Assembly (NCBI RefSeq): GCF_050920415.1
Contig: NZ_CP169309.1
Strand: one strand, 5' to 3'
Length of the DNA: 64,000 bases
DNA from: Escherichia coli
Lineage (GTDB): Bacteria > Pseudomonadota > Gammaproteobacteria > Enterobacterales > Enterobacteriaceae
The first letter of the stretch is position 1. Each line of letters starts with the position of its first letter. The notes under the pieces were generated by a model. It was not told the origin of the DNA and ran no database searches. It saw only the letters and a list, made by a program, of their open reading frames with translations. The position numbers were made by a program, and so were the translations under genes. This document shows positions 3,190 to 13,135 of this stretch, one piece after another.

Positions 3190-4245
3190 TTAAGATTTTT
3201 TACCGTAAACGACACCGGAACGGCCTAACATGTCGCTGGTGATCTGTAAGCCTTCTGCTGACATGATGCGGAAGTTGTAGTTATCGGTAGGCATGAGGCG
3301 CGGTAGCGGAACTACACCAGTAGTCATACCGATCAGCGGGGTAATCACTGATTTCTGGCGCTGGTAAGCGATGAACTCGTTACCTTTCAGTGCGAAGGTC
3401 TGACGAATTTCACCAACCGGGATGTACGGTTTAATTACATCCAGGACGCGACCAACAACCGCACCATTAACGACGTGAGGCGCGGCAAGGTTAGCCATGA
3501 TTTCAGGGGATACCCACATAACATCGTATTTAGCTACGAAGTTGTTGCGGGCCAGAGTACCGAAAGCGCCAGTAGTAAAGAATGCGATAATTTCCTGGAA
3601 GGTCATCGTAGTGAGATCTTCATTGGTCATCTTTAACTGCTGGGTATTGCGGTGATTTTTGATACCCTGTGCTTTTTTGCCTTCAACGACGATACGGTCG
3701 CTCCCTTCAAGGTAGAAGCGAACACGTTCTTTGTTGAATTTTTTCAGTTTCAGGCGCTGGCTATCCAGAGCAAGGTCGACACCAACGGTGTTTAAACCTG
3801 CTGCGTGACGCCAGTTAACCCCGTAACCTGCCGTGAACATCGGAATCGGATCGCCATCGCTACCGTATTCAGTATGATCGAAGCCATGAGGGGCTTGACC
3901 ATCCATAGAAATGACGACTTCATCATTGATGTCACCTGCTACGCTGTACATTTTCAGTGTTTTACCGATTGGCAGTACAGTCTGCACCCCCATCAGGTCG
4001 TTTACGATCTCGATACCAATTTCTTCGGTGTTTAGTTCGATGATCTGGTTGTCAATTTCCTGCCAGAACTCACGGGCAAAACCGCCAACGGCGTTACATG
4101 CCAGCATTTCAGGGGTCATATTGGCACGGTTAGCAGCAATCATAGAATCATGCTGCTGATTAAAGATGTTACGTTGCGCCCACATTTCTTGCCAGTGACT
4201 TTGCATACGGGCGTTAGTAGCAAGGTTTTCCCTAGTAAAATACAT
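3190..4245 (-). CDS. major capsid protein
   Basis: 351-aa ORF downstream of scaffold/decoration-like genes and followed by a strong attenuating terminator. Confidence 0.5.
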   Translation of the reverse strand: MYFTRENLATNARMQSHWQEMWAQRNIFNQQHDSMIAANRANMTPEMLACNAVGGFAREFWQEIDNQIIELNTEEIGIEIVNDLMGVQTVLPIGKTLKMYSVAGDINDEVVISMDGQAPHGFDHTEYGSDGDPIPMFTAGYGVNWRHAAGLNTVGVDLALDSQRLKLKKFNKERVRFYLEGSDRIVVEGKKAQGIKNHRNTQQLKMTNEDLTTMTFQEIIAFFTTGAFGTLARNNFVAKYDVMWVSPEIMANLAAPHVVNGAVVGRVLDVIKPYIPVGEIRQTFALKGNEFIAYQRQKSVITPLIGMTTGVVPLPRLMPTDNYNFRIMSAEGLQITSDMLGRSGVVYGKKS

Positions 4246-4260
4246 TATGTATACCTCTCG

Positions 4261-4683
4261 TTATGCAATACGGACGCGAATAAAGTCAACTTCTCCCAGG
4301 GTTACGTTTTCCTGGCAGTAGGCGACAGCAATTTCAGGTGTTTCTGCTTCTGCATTAACCAGACGGAAGCCAGTTGCATCAATGGTGATAGCTGCGTCTT
4401 TGACGTAATCGCCAGCCGGGAGACGGATTGCGAACTCACGCCCCTCTTCCATGTAGTCAGCGACCATCATTTCATCTTTTGCGATCTTGTCACCAATGCC
4501 TTTACCCTGGTGATAAGCAGGCATAGCAACATATAAACGACCTTCTCCTTTGGTTGCCGGAGTGAATTTGCCGTTAGCGATAACAACAGGTGCGCCAGGT
4601 TGAACGTCAGCGGCTGCTAGATAGCTTTCGGTAATGGATTTACCGTCAATATTTACACGACGAAAACGAAACATTGTTATCAC
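4261..4683 (-). CDS. phage head structural protein (decoration-like)
   Basis: 140-aa ORF between the scaffold-like and capsid genes. Confidence 0.35.
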   Translation of the reverse strand: MITMFRFRRVNIDGKSITESYLAAADVQPGAPVVIANGKFTPATKGEGRLYVAMPAYHQGKGIGDKIAKDEMMVADYMEEGREFAIRLPAGDYVKDAAITIDATGFRLVNAEAETPEIAVAYCQENVTLGEVDFIRVRIA

Positions 4684-8306: not shown

Positions 8307-9791
8307 TTAAAATCCGCGCAGGCGCTTAGGTAACATAAGGCCCATTGCCTGAGGCTGGCTTAATTCAGTGATACCCCATACCATTGCGTCGAGGCGGTCC
8401 GGGGATTTTTTAGCGGTAGCTGGCACGTATTCCATCATTTGATTTTCCAGCGTGTACAGGCTGCCTGTGTGGGCCACCCTTCCCTGTGCATACAGTGCCG
8501 ATATTGGCTCGGCGCGGGCGAATTTACCTTTGCTTGCGTGCACCTTAACAATGCGGCCTTTGAATCCGGCATTACGTAGCGTGGCTTCCGCCATCTCCCC
8601 GCCCTGGTTTGTTTCGATAACTATCGCGTCAGCTTCATGGATCTCATAAGCGTTCATTGCGGCTTGCGCCCAGTCGTTAGGAGACATGCGGCCTGAGTAG
8701 TCGCCGTCTACTGAATATTGCGCGTGCTTACCACCACCATAAGCGGAACAAGCCATAATCCCTGTTTCGTCAGACTCTTCCGATGATGTTGTTGCCGGGT
8801 CAATGGCTATCACCGTGCGGATCTTGTCCTGCGTTATCTGCATCCGGTGAGCGGCGGTTATCATCGCTTCAGTCCATAACGCGCCTTCTTCGTCGAATTT
8901 ACGCGGGCGCTGCATGTACTGGGCCTCAAATGACCGTCTGTGCGCCTTCAGTCCGGCTTCATGGCTGTCATTGTGCTTTTTAGGCCATAGCCAGCCGTCC
9001 GGCAGGTTGTGAGCAATAGGGATGGCGAATTCGTTTTCCGGGTACAGATCCCAATAGTCGATGCTATTGTCGATCTTCACTGGCAGGTTAAGGTGATACC
9101 ATTTCTCACCACTGCCACCGCGTAACAGGTAGCCGGACAAATCATCGTAGTGGATGCGCTGCATAATGACGATCACGGGCGTGGTTTGCACTGCCAGACG
9201 TGAAGCCAGCGTGTCGTTATAGTTGGTCTTTACCTTCTCCCGCATCACATCAGAGTAAGCGTCAGCGGGCTTTAATGGGTCGTCGATAATCATCGCGCCG
9301 TTAAAGCCTGGCTCCATGTAACCAGCACGAAAACCCGTAATCTGACCGTGTGACGATGCGGCATATATCCCGCCGCCCTGTTCCGTCCACCACATCGATT
9401 TACTGTTGGCATCGTTGCGGATCTTCATGGGCCATAGCTTTTGGTATTCCTGCGAACAAACCATGCTTCTGACTGTCGATGAATTGAGTAATGCCAGATT
9501 GTCGGAATAGGAAACATGAAGGAAGCGTGTGCGGGGATTTATTGCGAGGGACCGCGCCATCATATTGATGGTTGCGATCATGGTTTTACCGTACCCTGGG
9601 GGGATGTTAATGATGAGGCGGGTAATCTCACCATTAATAACACGCTGTAGCGCATCACGGATGGCTATGTGGTGTCCTGAGATTAACATCTTCGTTCCGT
9701 TTGCTTGCTTGTAGAAGTAACGGTTGAAGAACAGGCCATCGTTTTCACATTTTGACTGAATAACCCTTTCTTTGATGGACAACATAATCAC
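8307..9791 (-). CDS. terminase large subunit
   Basis: 494 aa; Walker A-like PPGYGKT motif near the N-terminus, nuclease-like C-terminal half; follows terS. Confidence 0.6.
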   Translation of the reverse strand: MIMLSIKERVIQSKCENDGLFFNRYFYKQANGTKMLISGHHIAIRDALQRVINGEITRLIINIPPGYGKTMIATINMMARSLAINPRTRFLHVSYSDNLALLNSSTVRSMVCSQEYQKLWPMKIRNDANSKSMWWTEQGGGIYAASSHGQITGFRAGYMEPGFNGAMIIDDPLKPADAYSDVMREKVKTNYNDTLASRLAVQTTPVIVIMQRIHYDDLSGYLLRGGSGEKWYHLNLPVKIDNSIDYWDLYPENEFAIPIAHNLPDGWLWPKKHNDSHEAGLKAHRRSFEAQYMQRPRKFDEEGALWTEAMITAAHRMQITQDKIRTVIAIDPATTSSEESDETGIMACSAYGGGKHAQYSVDGDYSGRMSPNDWAQAAMNAYEIHEADAIVIETNQGGEMAEATLRNAGFKGRIVKVHASKGKFARAEPISALYAQGRVAHTGSLYTLENQMMEYVPATAKKSPDRLDAMVWGITELSQPQAMGLMLPKRLRGF

Positions 9792-10273
9792 ACCTCGTCT
9801 TCTACTTCCTGGACGATGCGGGCGATCTCTTCTTTCGTGACTTCAACCTGGACGGGCGCTTCTTCCTTGTTGCCAATAATCTCTTGTGTGACGCGTTCGC
9901 CATATTTACGCGGTTGCAGTTTTGCCAGTAACCATTTGCGCGTTTCAATCATTAGTTGGTGGCGGCGTAGTTGGTCTTTATCAACGTTTTTAGCATCATC
10001 AGCAATGTCGATGATTTCATCAGCTAATACCTCGAAACCGATCTCCTTCGCGCGCATATACATGTCCGAAAATTCAGGCACATCCCTAAACCACTTAAGA
10101 ATTGTTGAACGTGATGGCATACCAGGCATCTTCGAAATTTTGTTAACGCTCTGACCGTCCGCCACCAGCTCACAAATCTCTAACGCCTTTTCTTCGGTAT
10201 AACCATGCGGACGGCCCACCTTTTTAGCGGCTGGCTTTTTGTCGTCAGCATTTGCCTTTTTAGTGCGGGCCAT
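9788..10273 (-). CDS. terminase small subunit
   Basis: 161 aa, N-terminal HTH-like segment, acidic C-terminus, 4-nt overlap with terL. Confidence 0.5.
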   Translation of the reverse strand: MARTKKANADDKKPAAKKVGRPHGYTEEKALEICELVADGQSVNKISKMPGMPSRSTILKWFRDVPEFSDMYMRAKEIGFEVLADEIIDIADDAKNVDKDQLRRHQLMIETRKWLLAKLQPRKYGERVTQEIIGNKEEAPVQVEVTKEEIARIVQEVEDEV

Positions 10274-10283
10274 ATTTCACCTC

Positions 10284-10367
10284 TCAATATTTATTGATGA
10301 TATATACGCAAGCTACAAAACTTGCACAGTATGTTAATACTTCCAACCAGTCGAATAGCTCTTTCAT
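10284..10367 (-). CDS. small hydrophobic peptide 1 (27 aa, MKELFDWLEVLTYCASFVACVYIINKY)
   Basis: ATG 10367 to TGA 10284; single predicted TM helix; first member of a nine-gene tandem array. Confidence 0.4.
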   Translation of the reverse strand: MKELFDWLEVLTYCASFVACVYIINKY

Positions 10368-10377
10368 TGTTTACCCT

Positions 10378-10449
10378 TTACATAATCGAAAGCGCCCAGG
10401 TAATAAGGACGATAGCCAAAACCATGCAGATAAAATCTGACTCTCTCAT
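10378..10449 (-). CDS. small hydrophobic peptide 2 (23 aa, MRESDFICMVLAIVLITWALSIM)
   Basis: AAGGTGG SD 7 nt upstream of the ATG; single TM helix; 10-nt gap to the next ORF. Confidence 0.45.
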   Translation of the reverse strand: MRESDFICMVLAIVLITWALSIM

Positions 10450-10524
10450 ATTGTCCACCTTGTTTACGCGAAGAAAACAATAACAGCTAACAGCGTGCAT
10501 ATAGCCATAATTAAGAAATCACTA

Positions 10525-10599
10525 TCAGACATTGATAATCACTCCCACGATAATTAACGCTGCTATACATACGAACAATACAGCTTCGATAACATCCAT
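10525..10599 (-). CDS. small hydrophobic peptide 3 (24 aa, MDVIEAVLFVCIAALIIVGVIINV)
   Basis: AGGTGAG SD upstream; single TM helix. Confidence 0.45.
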   Translation of the reverse strand: MDVIEAVLFVCIAALIIVGVIINV

Positions 10600-10607
10600 T
10601 CGCTCAC

Positions 10608-10676
10608 CTATTGAGTTAGCGCGGTCATGGTAAGAACAATCGCAACGATCAGGAAAAAGAAATCAAGCCATTTCAT
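10608..10676 (-). CDS. small hydrophobic peptide 4 (22 aa, MKWLDFFFLIVAIVLTMTALTQ)
   Basis: GGGAG SD; start overlaps the stop of peptide 5 (ATGA); single TM helix. Confidence 0.45.
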   Translation of the reverse strand: MKWLDFFFLIVAIVLTMTALTQ

Positions 10677-10753
10677 TTTTTAAACTCCCGATAAACATCT
10701 ACGGCAATCACTGTAATAACAGCCACCAGCAATAGCATTTCATATGCGTTCAT
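10673..10753 (-). CDS. small hydrophobic peptide 5 (26 aa, MNAYEMLLLVAVITVIAVDVYREFKK)
   Basis: AGGTGAA SD; single TM helix; translationally coupled to peptide 4. Confidence 0.45.
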   Translation of the reverse strand: MNAYEMLLLVAVITVIAVDVYREFKK

Positions 10754-10761
10754 GCTTTCAC

Positions 10762-10836
10762 CTATACAACGTTATTCCACCAGAAATAGATAATGACTGC
10801 GACCAACGACCACCAGATGAGATCGTAAATGTTCAT
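10762..10836 (-). CDS. small hydrophobic peptide 6 (24 aa, MNIYDLIWWSLVAVIIYFWWNNVV)
   Basis: Single TM helix, Trp-rich; 8-nt gap to peptide 5; weak SD. Confidence 0.35.
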   Translation of the reverse strand: MNIYDLIWWSLVAVIIYFWWNNVV

Positions 10837-10848
10837 GATTAAATACCG

Positions 10849-10923
10849 TCAGCTCTCAATGAATATCATGATCGCCAGCCATACAGCGACGCAGGCAGAA
10901 AGAACAATAAGCGGATCAATCAT
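10849..10923 (-). CDS. small hydrophobic peptide 7 (24 aa, MIDPLIVLSACVAVWLAIMIFIES)
   Basis: GGGTGG-like SD; single TM helix. Confidence 0.4.
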   Translation of the reverse strand: MIDPLIVLSACVAVWLAIMIFIES

Positions 10924-10935
10924 ATTGCCACCCAT

Positions 10936-11031
10936 CTAATATTTGCTCATTACGGTTATAAGCACGGCGATAACGAAGCCAACCAGAAATATAGATATAC
11001 CTATTAATCCGGCGATGATGCTTTCGTCCAT
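10936..11031 (-). CDS. small hydrophobic peptide 8 (31 aa, MDESIIAGLIGISIFLVGFVIAVLITVMSKY)
   Basis: Single TM helix; start 2 nt after the stop of peptide 9. Confidence 0.4.
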   Translation of the reverse strand: MDESIIAGLIGISIFLVGFVIAVLITVMSKY

Positions 11032-11033
11032 AA

Positions 11034-11123
11034 CTAATCCTGCATAGACATAACCACCAGAAACAAGCAAAGGATGAATCCAGCCGCCATCCCACCGATG
11101 AAAGTTAGTATTGATGCGATCAT
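11034..11123 (-). CDS. small hydrophobic peptide 9 (29 aa, MIASILTFIGGMAAGFILCLFLVVMSMQD)
   Basis: Starts 2 nt after the stop of the upstream 176-aa gene; GAGG SD; single TM helix. Confidence 0.4.
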   Translation of the reverse strand: MIASILTFIGGMAAGFILCLFLVVMSMQD

Positions 11124-11125
11124 AA

Positions 11126-11656
11126 TCAGCCTCGTTTAAAGCTCATAACACGCGGTACAAGCGCTTCTTTTGCTTTCGGCTTACGTTTGCCTTTCTTTGC
11201 GGGTTTTTCTTCCTTCGGCTGTTCTAATGCCTGCTCGACGACTTCAGCCGCCTGCATTGCCGCTACTTGTGCTTCGTTTGATTCAGCCAGGATAGGGAAA
11301 AATGCATCGAAGATACGGCCTACCATGTAAGCGTAAGTCTCATTCGCCGGGTGAGTTGGATCAGTGATCGCCACGACGCCAACATCACTTAAAACGTGGA
11401 ATGTAGTGTGAGCGCATTCATGTACCAGCGTTCCTAACTCATTGTCGAATACTGCGATCACGTAGAAGTTACCGCCTTTCTCACCAGTGCAAGTAAGCGT
11501 CAATCCTCCAGCCAGTTCGAAATCAGGTTCGATTGGAATTCCTGCCTTTTCGCAAAATTCATAAAACATCTCGCGGGTCGGGCAAAAGAAAACGGTTGTA
11601 TGCTCAAAGAGCGGGATCTTGAATTGAGGCAACTTAATGCCTTTAGCCTTAGCCAT
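11126..11656 (-). CDS. hypothetical protein with HExxH motif (possible SprT-like zinc-metallopeptidase fold), basic C-terminal tail
   Basis: 176 aa; AGGAG SD; motif LVHECAHTTFH; lysine-rich C-terminus. Confidence 0.4.
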   Translation of the reverse strand: MAKAKGIKLPQFKIPLFEHTTVFFCPTREMFYEFCEKAGIPIEPDFELAGGLTLTCTGEKGGNFYVIAVFDNELGTLVHECAHTTFHVLSDVGVVAITDPTHPANETYAYMVGRIFDAFFPILAESNEAQVAAMQAAEVVEQALEQPKEEKPAKKGKRKPKAKEALVPRVMSFKRG

Positions 11657-11983
11657 CAGAATAATCTCCTGTCTGGTTTGCTTTTACTTCCTGTTTATAC
11701 AGCGGAAGGAATGACATAAAACACTGAAAACGGCGCTTCATCAGTACCGTTTCCAGAATTTTATAAAACTGGACCTGCTTAACATCTCTGATAAACAGAT
11801 CCGGGCGCTCGTCCTACGCATGGCAGGTGAGTGAATGGCGCTTTCTTCTACCCGGGTAGCGCCGACCTGTTAATGGGATGGATGATCCGGTATTACGTGT
11901 TTTTGACTATTCCGCCGTCGCTCGCGGGAAGGATTGCCCCGGTTATGGCTGGCTGGCGGAAACGGCGACACGTCCACGCGCTG

Positions 11984-12454
11984 TTATTTTTTGCGTAAGC
12001 ACTGCGTTTTGATATAGCTCTGAAGTCCGGTGATCTTCGCGTCTTTCTCTTTTAGTTGTTCTCTGAGGGATAGATAAGCCGATTCAGCGTCGGGAGTGAG
12101 TCTACAGGTGGCTCCATCAATGCGGCTGGCGGTTCCGGTATTGTCGAGTAATCGCACTGGCTCGGCGTTGACGTGCAACCGGATAGTACCGCTATCAATG
12201 CCTGCACGCAGATCGGCAATGTCAGATCTGATAGCTTTAATTTCATCGTGATACCTCTTATCAAGTTTTGACAGTTCGGCGTTTCGCTCCTTCATCTGCT
12301 GAATAGTGTTACTTGCTGTTTTTAGTGCGCCTTGCGTCACCGTGACTTCTTCCTGTAACCTTGCCGCCTCACCGTGGTAATAACATGTAACGGCAGCTAG
12401 CCCGGCAATAATGCAAACAACAACGGCGATGATTAACGCCTTTACCTTGTCCAT
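11984..12454 (-). CDS. i-spanin (Rz-like)
   Basis: 156 aa; N-terminal TM anchor, coiled-coil periplasmic domain; overlaps the endolysin 3' end; embedded Rz1 frame. Confidence 0.6.
12052..12246 (-). CDS. o-spanin (Rz1-like lipoprotein) embedded in the Rz frame
   Basis: Alternate frame inside Rz; signal peptide with LSGC lipobox; proline-rich mature part. Confidence 0.5.
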   Translation of the reverse strand: MKLKLSDLTLPICVQALIAVLSGCTSTPSQCDYSTIPEPPAALMEPPVDSLPTLNRLIYPSENN

Positions 12455-12933
12455 GTTTCACCCCATTCGCAAACGGCATATTCAACATCACGGCGATTGA
12501 TTAAACCTTGCCACTGCTTACCGCCAGCATAGATCCAGCGTTTAAGCTGTGCGCACGCTTCTGATTTCTTGCCGTCATTGAGTAGCTTCAATAAGGTTGA
12601 TGTTTTGAAATTGGTTGCGCCTACGTTATAGGCGAATGAATAAAGCGCCGCGCGGGTAAAATCTGATATTTCGACTTTAATATACGGGTCAATCGCTTTT
12701 GCGGTCTTGTGGAGATCTTTGTTTAACAAAGCATCGCATTCTGATTGCGTGTAAGTCTTACCAAGCATGATGTCTTTTCCGGTGTGACCATAGCAAACAG
12801 TCCATACACCGATAACATCACGATACGGATCGTACTCCACGCCTTCTAATGGTTTAACCATCACAGCCGCAATAGCGATCGCCCCACCAGCCGCCGCAGC
12901 AATAATCTTATTCTTCAGCGATTGGCTAATCAT
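12442..12933 (-). CDS. SAR endolysin (T4-lysozyme-like, phage 21 R-type)
   Basis: N-terminal Gly/Ala-rich SAR helix [17 protein letters not shown] then [18 protein letters not shown] catalytic region; start at MISQSL, 1 nt after the holin stop. Confidence 0.7.
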
Positions 12934-12934
12934 G

Positions 12935-13135
12935 TTACTTATTCCCCATTCGCGCGTCGTGTTCCTCTTGCGCTCGTTTGTTCTCCTGTGATTTGAAGTA
13001 ATAATTAACGGCAAATGTGCCTATGGTTGATAAGATACCCACAAATACAGCAACATCATTAATGGTTATCGCACCAAAAAAGGCCGTTACGGCCCCTACT
13101 GCATACGCGCACACCTCCCGTATTTTGTCGAACAT
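12935..13135 (-). CDS. pinholin-type holin (S21-like)
   Basis: 66 aa, two hydrophobic helices, charged C-terminus [15 protein letters not shown] resembling S21; GGAGG SD. Confidence 0.6.

Follow-up and report, generated by a model that had tools for sequence, protein, structure and literature searches.

A putative zincin-like metallopeptidase encoded at the lysis/packaging boundary of an mEp021-type coliphage or prophage

What is the function of a small protein with an HExxH motif that is encoded between a lysis cassette and an array of membrane-peptide genes in Escherichia coli, and does it have anything to do with these peptides? The gene in question lies in a stretch of 64,000 nucleotides (nt) of contig NZ_CP169309.1, which as a whole is called the window in the following, and occupies positions 11126..11656 on the minus strand. 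According to the list of open reading frames (ORFs), its match to the PHROGs database, its nucleotide identity to phage genes and its ratio of nonsynonymous to synonymous substitution rates (dN/dS), it is a coding sequence for a protein of 176 amino acids (aa), homologous to mEp021_49 of phage mEp021 and a member of family PHROG 1365. An initial annotation, made from the sequence alone, had taken the product for a metallopeptidase-like protein that could process the nine peptides encoded next to it or act together with them. Our analysis leads to another account, which as a whole we regard as rather probable: the gene is a late gene of an mEp021-type phage, its product is a minimal zinc metallopeptidase of the HExxH-plus-Glu type, and this enzyme serves as an accessory late endopeptidase independently of the peptides. 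What we describe is thus an uncharacterised zincin-like phage peptidase with a lineage-specific tail and a conserved genomic slot, from a family that is already present in PHROGs; the system as such is not of a new kind.

The gene and its conservation

The 176-aa ORF is real, and it lies on the minus strand, a detail absent from the initial annotation. It is preceded by the strong Shine-Dalgarno (SD) sequence reported earlier, AGGAG at 11666..11670 (minus strand), which can be read directly 9 nt before the ATG. In a sample of 47 related viral contigs plus the window the gene is under strong purifying selection, with a dN/dS of 0.06 at a dS of about 0.56 over codons 1-125. The ratio is low at the C-terminal end too, with 0.08 for the last 26 codons and 0.025 for the last 10, so that conservation of the tail concerns its protein sequence and not the DNA alone. 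A lone HExxH motif is weak evidence, but the invariance of H79, E80, H83 and E106, taken together with the low dN/dS, indicates that this ORF is more than a chance occurrence of the motif.

Active-site signature

The stretch LVHECAHTTFH that had been pointed out as a putative zinc-binding motif is indeed present, and its core HECAH (H79 E80 C81 A82 H83; 11408..11422, minus strand) is predicted from the translation and from conservation to supply the catalytic base and two of the zinc ligands. H87, the histidine that ends the stretch, is on the other hand not conserved in the family. In our alignment of 123 diverse members, which are 25-40% identical to the query, the only columns invariant in all 123 sequences are G51, H79, E80, H83 and E106; Y110 (120 of 123) and G93 (111 of 123) are nearly so, while N105 is found in 79. 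The family consensus can be written as (hydrophobic strand)-GVFD-x4-TLxHExxH-x20-NExxCYL. In the window protein the second half of this signature reads NETYAY (N105-Y110; 11327..11344, minus strand), with E106 as the predicted third zinc ligand and the nearly invariant Y110 at its end. The HExxH lies on a helix (H79-E80-C-A-H83 inside the predicted helix 74-91), and E106 follows 23 residues past H83 at the start of the predicted helix 103-128.

Most relatives have F, Y or D in place of H87, and H102 falls within an insertion peculiar to the E. coli lineage, so that the third zinc ligand is likely to be E106 and not a histidine. As far as the alignment can tell, the signature is HExxH plus a downstream Glu (the gluzincin pattern), and not HExxH plus His. 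If general zincin chemistry holds for this protein, H79, H83 and E106 would hold one Zn2+ ion and E80 would act as the general base on the water bound to it. The substrate backbone would be bound by the edge strand that precedes the active-site helix (the GVFD strand, with G51), and Y110 would help to stabilise the transition state.

Predicted fold and relation to known peptidases

AlphaFold2, supplied with the 123-sequence alignment, gave a confident model of residues 1-129 (pLDDT 92.9, pTM 0.87), with strands at 11-13, 21-25, 51-57 and 63-69 and helices at 28-38, 74-91 and 103-128. The catalytic domain predicted from it comprises residues 1-128 (11273..11656, minus strand) in the order beta-beta-alpha-beta-beta-alpha(HExxH)-alpha(Glu). 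When the full-length protein is modelled, this last helix extends to residue 144, and residues 146-176 are disordered (pLDDT <50). The zincin core of phage and plasmid proteins consists of a three-stranded sheet with one helix before and two after it, the HExxH being placed on the first of these two and the Glu on the second (PMC5512222). The order of elements predicted for the window protein matches that of this core.

The link to known peptidases at the level of sequence is moderate. Single-sequence searches of Pfam (E<=1), NCBIfam, PDB sequences and PADLOC returned no match or only matches labelled 'unknown', no precomputed Pfam domains were found on close homologues, and Foldseek against the PDB gave nothing significant. 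The family profile gave 18 weak matches among PDB sequences, 13 of which are zinc peptidases; among these 13 are myroilysin (the best match, E 0.03), an M35 peptidase, BMP-1/tolloid and thermolysin, and the alignments to myroilysin and the M35 peptidase cover the strand plus the HExxH. Sub-threshold matches to the Pfam SprT-like family were given by 18 of the 123 members (best E 1e-4), and hhalign against the alignment of the ArdC-type family PF18818 reached 74.7% over 46 columns, which span the strand and the HExxH and leave the Glu region unaligned. Weak as they are, the profile matches consistently point to zinc peptidases. The metallopeptidase-like character proposed initially is thus upheld by a catalytic signature that is invariant family-wide, by the zincin-core order of elements and by these matches.

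Is the likeness to zincins perhaps superficial, the protein binding zinc in a structural or regulatory function or being a pseudo-enzyme? Two observations weigh in this sense against a peptidase: there is no significant match to a curated peptidase family or to a solved peptidase structure, and the domain, with its predicted zinc site, is very small. Set against them are the conservation of H, E, H and E in 123 of 123 members, including an E80 that pure metal binding would not need, and the element order and profile matches just described. We give a non-protease function a slim chance, and prefer to regard the protein as a probable zinc peptidase.

To which peptidases it is closest is a separate matter. 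The SprT-like/Spartan/Wss1 proteins (PF10263), which had been named as a fold to look for, are small HExxH proteases like the window protein. SprT, Spartan and Wss1 use a third histidine as zinc ligand, whereas the window protein has the invariant E106 instead; moreover, it has no PF10263 match and no zinc ribbon. Membership was rejected also on the ground that E. coli YggI/SprT was unmatched, both by hhalign (5% probability) and by the family hidden Markov model (HMM) run with --max. The MPTase-PolyVal domain (PF18818, the C-terminal domain of ArdC) resembles the window protein as modelled in carrying the HExxH on one helix and the Glu on the next and in its three-stranded sheet with a backing helix, and has a phage or mobile-element setting as well (PMC5512222). 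The window protein differs from it in lacking a Pfam PF18818 match and in standing alone instead of being a domain of a large, cell-delivered multidomain protein. In our reading the family probably belongs to neither SprT-like nor PF18818 and forms a separate, uncurated family inside the zincin superfamily. The combination of a PF06114 match with an XRE-type repressor gene as partner, by which ImmA/IrrE proteins (M78) are recognised, was not found, and the PADLOC-DB defence HMMs gave no match at E<=0.1 for the window protein or for its relatives Orf-129 and HkcC.

A further protein to be compared is PhageMetallopep (PF18894, 'putative phage metallopeptidase'), likewise an uncharacterised HExxH phage protein encoded just upstream of the small terminase. 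It is larger (about 210 aa), carries another PHROGs label and has no detectable similarity to the window protein beyond the HExxH; hhalign of the window family against a single PF18894 sequence gave 1.4% probability, an uninformative value. In two loci (L098 and L109) a 212-aa PF18894 protein with the motif VEHELYH is encoded 3 nt past the PHROG 1365 gene, and in L098 the gene for the small terminase subunit (TerS) comes next. At their lysis/packaging boundary these loci encode, one after the other, two HExxH proteins that are unrelated to each other; the PHROGs label of the second is 'transposase'.

Occurrence of the family and source phage

Residues 1-131 of the window protein match PHROG 1365 ('unknown function') with an E of 1.5e-30 over profile positions 3-124 of 127; ST64T Orf-129, HK620 HkcC and mEp013_66 match it as well. 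A profile search of 1.84 billion representative proteins yielded 229 at E<=1e-3, nearly all of them stand-alone proteins of 110-140 aa, with a typical size of about 120 aa; over the whole family the stand-alone members range from 110 to 190 aa. A second large protein search with the family profile brought up the same E. coli proteins again and added nothing. Two matches of 5-7 thousand aa (P0145 and P0159) were discarded: they are repeat proteins of eukaryotes whose similarity is confined to the N-terminal KLPxFKIPLF stretch. Their repeats contain WGIQLPAFKIPLFG, and E-values of about 1e-9 to 1e-11 are reached via many copies resembling KLPQFKIPLFE; matches of this type are a trap for automated homology calls. 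One relative is already labelled 'PolyVal metallopeptidase' automatically in nr.

The best-placed points of comparison are HkcC of HK620, Orf129 of ST64T and phage L, and mEp021_49, with E-values of 1e-28 to 1e-45 against PHROG 1365 and of 1e-36 to 1e-41 against the family profile. They have the invariant HExxH...NE..Y signature in common with the window protein, and their genes, like the window gene, are all on the late-transcript strand of temperate enterobacterial phages. The P22-like members (121-129 aa, 35-44% identical to the window protein) differ in having neither the acidic spacer nor the lysine-rich tail. In ST64T (Orf-129) and phage L (Orf129) the gene has lysis gene 15 on one side and dec and the terminase genes on the other. 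Other members are ORF49 of Ralstonia phage RSB3, situated two ORFs past the lysozyme gene, and gp24 of the Pseudomonas N4-like phage phCDa. The P22 reference record (BK000583) contains an intact member ORF of 121-125 aa that is not annotated; it lies between sieA and orf59a/mnt on the late-transcript strand (2489-2866 on the plus strand of our locus L010, corresponding to BK000583.1 13849-14226), has HECAH and NETYCY, and is 35% identical to the window protein. Its HK620 counterpart is annotated as hkcC. In contrast to the window gene, this HkcC/P22 copy sits past ejection gene 16 in the immI region and not ahead of the terminase. For the study of gene neighbourhoods 80 further viral contigs were drawn with distant family members; 46 of them are non-redundant, and the neighbour counts given below for these 46 loci are lower bounds, few seed sequences having been used.

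By nucleotide identity the window itself is a coliphage or prophage of the mEp021 type (mEpimmI). Its DNA in this region agrees to 84-89% with that of the Escherichia phages MagusPhagus, mEp010, mEp021 and related ones, which make up the Nus-dependent, non-lambdoid 'mEpimmI' group (PMC11893012). The homologue mEp021_49 is annotated as 'hypothetical protein' and is not discussed in that report. According to the same report, mass spectrometry of mEp021 virions identified 16 proteins, among which mEp021_49 is apparently not included; the two that are noted as having genes outside the main structural cluster are both encoded upstream of the lysis region, and not here (PMC11893012). The gene is present in all seven phage records of the mEpimmI type, and in 33 of 5426 complete E. 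coli genomes, each time as a single chromosomal copy. A plasmid search returned prophage-like copies only, with no tie to plasmid leading regions. In our searches of the accessible literature on hkcC, orf129 and mEp021 a functional study of this protein was not found.

The downstream peptide array

The placement of the gene between the lysis cassette and the peptide array is as first described, Rz lying upstream and nine membrane-peptide ORFs downstream. So is the start of the next gene 2 nt past its stop: after the TGA only TT precedes the ATG of a hydrophobic ORF of 29 aa (11034-11123, minus strand). A small-ORF scan with hydropathy delimits the array to 10284..11123 on the minus strand and finds in it nine SD-preceded ORFs of 22-31 aa, namely the one just mentioned and those at 10936-11031, 10849-10923, 10673-10753, 10608-10676, 10525-10599, 10464-10532, 10378-10449 and 10284-10367. 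The strongly hydrophobic stretch in each is of membrane-helix strength, and the peptides amount to about one transmembrane (TM) helix each, without a leader or a common cleavage motif. In several cases the stop of one ORF lies 0-2 nt from the start of the next, or the two overlap by a short stretch.

At the junction with the protease gene (CGAGGC-TGA-TT-ATG; 11121..11134, minus strand) the last Arg-Gly codons double as the SD (GAGG) of the next gene. The succession of a stop, 2 nt and the ATG of a hydrophobic ORF of 20-38 aa is kept in 46 of 47 related loci, where synonymous variants stay G-rich and so preserve this SD. Coupling of protease and peptide genes is by these signs real in the window lineage, and the co-transcription assumed earlier is plausible. 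Does it follow that the protease matures, degrades or cooperates with the membrane peptides, for example as a membrane-peripheral enzyme held by its basic tail? In the window and nearly all of its close relatives the protease gene is translationally coupled to one for a single-TM peptide, which speaks for this, as does a tail whose polybasic stretch and short hydrophobic patch could bind anionic lipid, in a locus that adjoins lysis genes. The presumed substrates, however, are not constant. The first position of the array is filled by any of at least seven unrelated peptides in the related loci, and the array is a mosaic in which single 50-nt bins are present in only 32-98% of these loci; across the 47 related viral contigs the peptide genes appear to behave as shuffled cassettes. 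In mEp013 the next gene encodes an HNH endonuclease instead of a peptide (HNH_3/AP2; L008 2152-2637), directly past a protease with an alternative C-terminal tail, ...YIVAWRSRYAMG. Conversely, the 55% identical protein P0121 (loci L095 and L096) has retained the long spacer and a basic tail with KRG at its end, yet has no peptides beside it. P22-like phages, RSB3 and most of the 46 diverse loci have the enzyme without such an array. The claim that the protease processes the peptides or acts with them does not withstand these comparisons well, and we consider it very improbable.

The simplest history, as read from the distribution of these loci, would be that the peptide array is a lineage-specific, shuffled insertion into an older junction of protease and TerS genes. 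In L095 the stop TAA comes right after the codons for KRG, and only ACT separates it from the start codon (ATG) of the small-terminase gene; with P0121 coupled straight to TerS in this way, and with the array absent from most loci, the array therefore looks inserted into a pre-existing junction. The membrane peptides would then be neither partners nor substrates of the protease, and the array and the protease are best studied as separate modules.

The lysis and packaging neighbourhood

On the minus strand the order of genes is holin, lysozyme, Rz, a gap of 327 nt, the protease gene, the nine peptides, TerS, large terminase and portal. The lysis cassette spans 11984..13135 (minus strand) and consists of a holin (PF16080; 12935-13135), a lysozyme (PF00959; 12442-12933) and Rz (PF03245; 11984-12454) with a second ORF embedded in it; TerS (Sf6_terminase, PF20901, Pfam E 5.4e-38) is encoded at 9788..10273 (minus strand). 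The gap between the stop of Rz and the start codon of the protease gene (11657-11983) holds weak hairpins, and a rho-independent terminator is annotated in it in related phage records. Given the gap and these annotated terminators, co-transcription with the lysis genes would depend on late antitermination. In our scans of 9.7-13.5 kb with Rfam and for promoters and terminators, no RNA family, minus-strand promoter or canonical terminator appeared beside the gene. The gap further contains a 30-aa ORF (11649-11741) overlapping the start codon, a 26-aa ORF (11741-11821) and a GGCGCT...AGCGCC hairpin without a T-run; its segment 11750-11850 is found in only about half of the related loci.

The gene lies directly past Rz, and at least 13 of the 46 loci have homologues of Rz, endolysin or holin from the window among the three ORFs upstream, while in RSB3 a lysozyme gene is similarly close. 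It might accordingly be asked whether the protease is a lysis-timing factor that cleaves a holin, an antiholin, the anchor of a signal-anchor-release (SAR) endolysin, a spanin component, or a host protease controlling any of these. The same neighbourhood argues the other way on closer inspection, for the 327-nt gap and the annotated terminators separate the gene from Rz, the P22/HK620 copy is far from the lysis genes, and the family occurs with diverse types of lysis genes. Lysis cassettes of the window's type also work without such a factor. A role in lysis timing is hence, in our estimate, highly unlikely, and an accessory function outside lysis is preferred.

On the packaging side, TerS lies within three ORFs downstream in at least 23 of the 46 loci and is directly adjacent (gap of 2-10 nt) in 12, the TerS genes concerned belonging to at least eight PHROG families. 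The other neighbours vary and comprise a decoration protein (ST64T), DUF2560, the PF18894 metallopeptidase, HNH endonucleases and an HTH-phosphoesterase. The possibility that DUF2560 is a constant partner was rejected, as it is adjacent in only 8 of 46 loci. This small protein (PHROG 571, 77-118 aa) is often encoded right next to the protease in P22-like phages, on the upstream side in ST64T (Orf-118; L005 3141-3497) and on the downstream side elsewhere. From these gene orders there appears to be no conserved partner, the conserved feature being a slot in the late transcript at the lysis/packaging boundary; the usual order seems to be lysis cassette, protease gene and small terminase, with the P22 copy placed elsewhere in the late region. 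Temperate phages are well known to carry accessory genes at the lysis/packaging boundary, and adjacency to the terminase may therefore reflect either a hot spot or a function.

Spacer and C-terminal tail

The catalytic core of the window protein is followed by an acidic helical spacer rich in Ala, Glu and Gln (approximately residues 126-146; 11219..11281, minus strand), recognised from the model and from indels, and then by the lysine-rich C-terminal tail PKEEKPAKKGKRKPKAKEALVPRVMSFKRG (11129..11218, minus strand), which is predicted to be disordered by its pLDDT and conserved by its dN/dS. The lysine-rich character noted earlier is evident: these final 30 residues contain 9 K and 3 R. Among relatives the protein varies from 172 to 194 aa through indels in the spacer helix, and the 176-aa window protein is a short-spacer variant. 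The window lineage thus has the order of catalytic core, variable acidic helical spacer and strongly conserved polybasic tail with a short hydrophobic end. A long extension of this kind, with both spacer and tail, is found in only 4 of 122 family representatives. Around 30% of the family, though, end in a short net-basic tail, for instance KKKK, ARLRRRR, KEIRRRRKRG or AKSKRKRKKKK, and this recurrence suggests that binding to a polyanion has repeatedly been useful to the enzymes of the family. Judged by its composition, the tail of the window protein is most likely a tether to a polyanion, which could be a nucleic acid (DNA or RNA) or else the membrane on its inner side.

If the polyanion were DNA, the protein might be a DNA-tethered protease of the SprT/Spartan/Wss1 or ArdC kind, clearing DNA-bound host proteins or nucleases from replicating or packaging DNA in concert with the terminase. 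The conserved polybasic tail on its flexible spacer fits such a function, and the basic region could act like the DNA-binding segments that activate Spartan and Wss1. The recurrence of basic tails in the family, the proximity to TerS across many TerS families, often at a gap of 2-10 nt, and the weak SprT-like and PF18818 profile signals lend it further plausibility. It is weakened by the approximately 70% of the family that have no basic tail, by the P22 and HK620 copies that are not beside the terminase, by the unmatched E. coli SprT with its different third ligand, and by the lack of a DNA-binding domain; the adjacency to TerS, moreover, can be explained by a hot spot at the module boundary. 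We rate this possibility as unlikely, although it deserves more credit than either processing of the peptides or timing of lysis.

Proposed role and significance

In the mechanism that we favour, the protein would be a soluble, stand-alone zincin from an uncharacterised phage family (PHROG 1365; HkcC/Orf129). Its gene, situated between the lysis cassette and the small terminase, would be expressed as part of the antiterminated late transcript, and the protein's core of about 125 aa would be tethered to a polyanion by the acidic spacer and the lysine-rich tail. It could tentatively be seen as an accessory endopeptidase of the cytoplasm which, late in infection, cleaves one or a few proteins of the host or the phage, and its role would then most likely be counter-defence or host shut-off.

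A broader version of this proposal can be entertained as a speculation that we think improbable but not negligible. PHROG 1365 would represent widespread, unrecognised late phage endopeptidases whose slot ahead of the terminase is functional, and which, tethered to a polyanion, destroy specific host proteins at the time of packaging. Their targets might be proteins bound to the concatemer or immune sensors of terminase or portal; in mEpimmI phages the enzyme may work at the membrane with the single-TM peptides.

If the favoured mechanism is true, an unstudied late zinc protease of about 120 residues is present in P22, HK620, ST64T, phage L, the gut-prevalent mEpimmI phages and phages of Ralstonia and Pseudomonas. 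It would be among the smallest zincin scaffolds and could be tested genetically, P22 and mEp021 being tractable, and it could reveal a new host target or a new route of counter-defence. For annotation, the family could be renamed from 'hypothetical protein' to 'putative zincin-like metallopeptidase', and the P22 reference record could be completed with the ORF that it lacks.

Further observations on neighbouring genes

Some features of the lysis genes and other neighbours may be recorded here. In locus L094 an HNH (HNH_3/AP2) gene (3752-4273) is inserted between the lysozyme and Rz genes, and the same locus shows an intein-splicing domain match in a Mu-F-like head morphogenesis protein. In the window, the N-terminal stretch of the lysozyme resembles a SAR segment, the holin (66 aa) is of a two-TM type (HP1/P21-like Pfam families), and the ORF embedded in Rz lies at 12052-12264. 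The cassette at 12442-13135 (minus strand), together with this embedded ORF, suggests a system of the pinholin, SAR-endolysin and Rz-Rz1 type.

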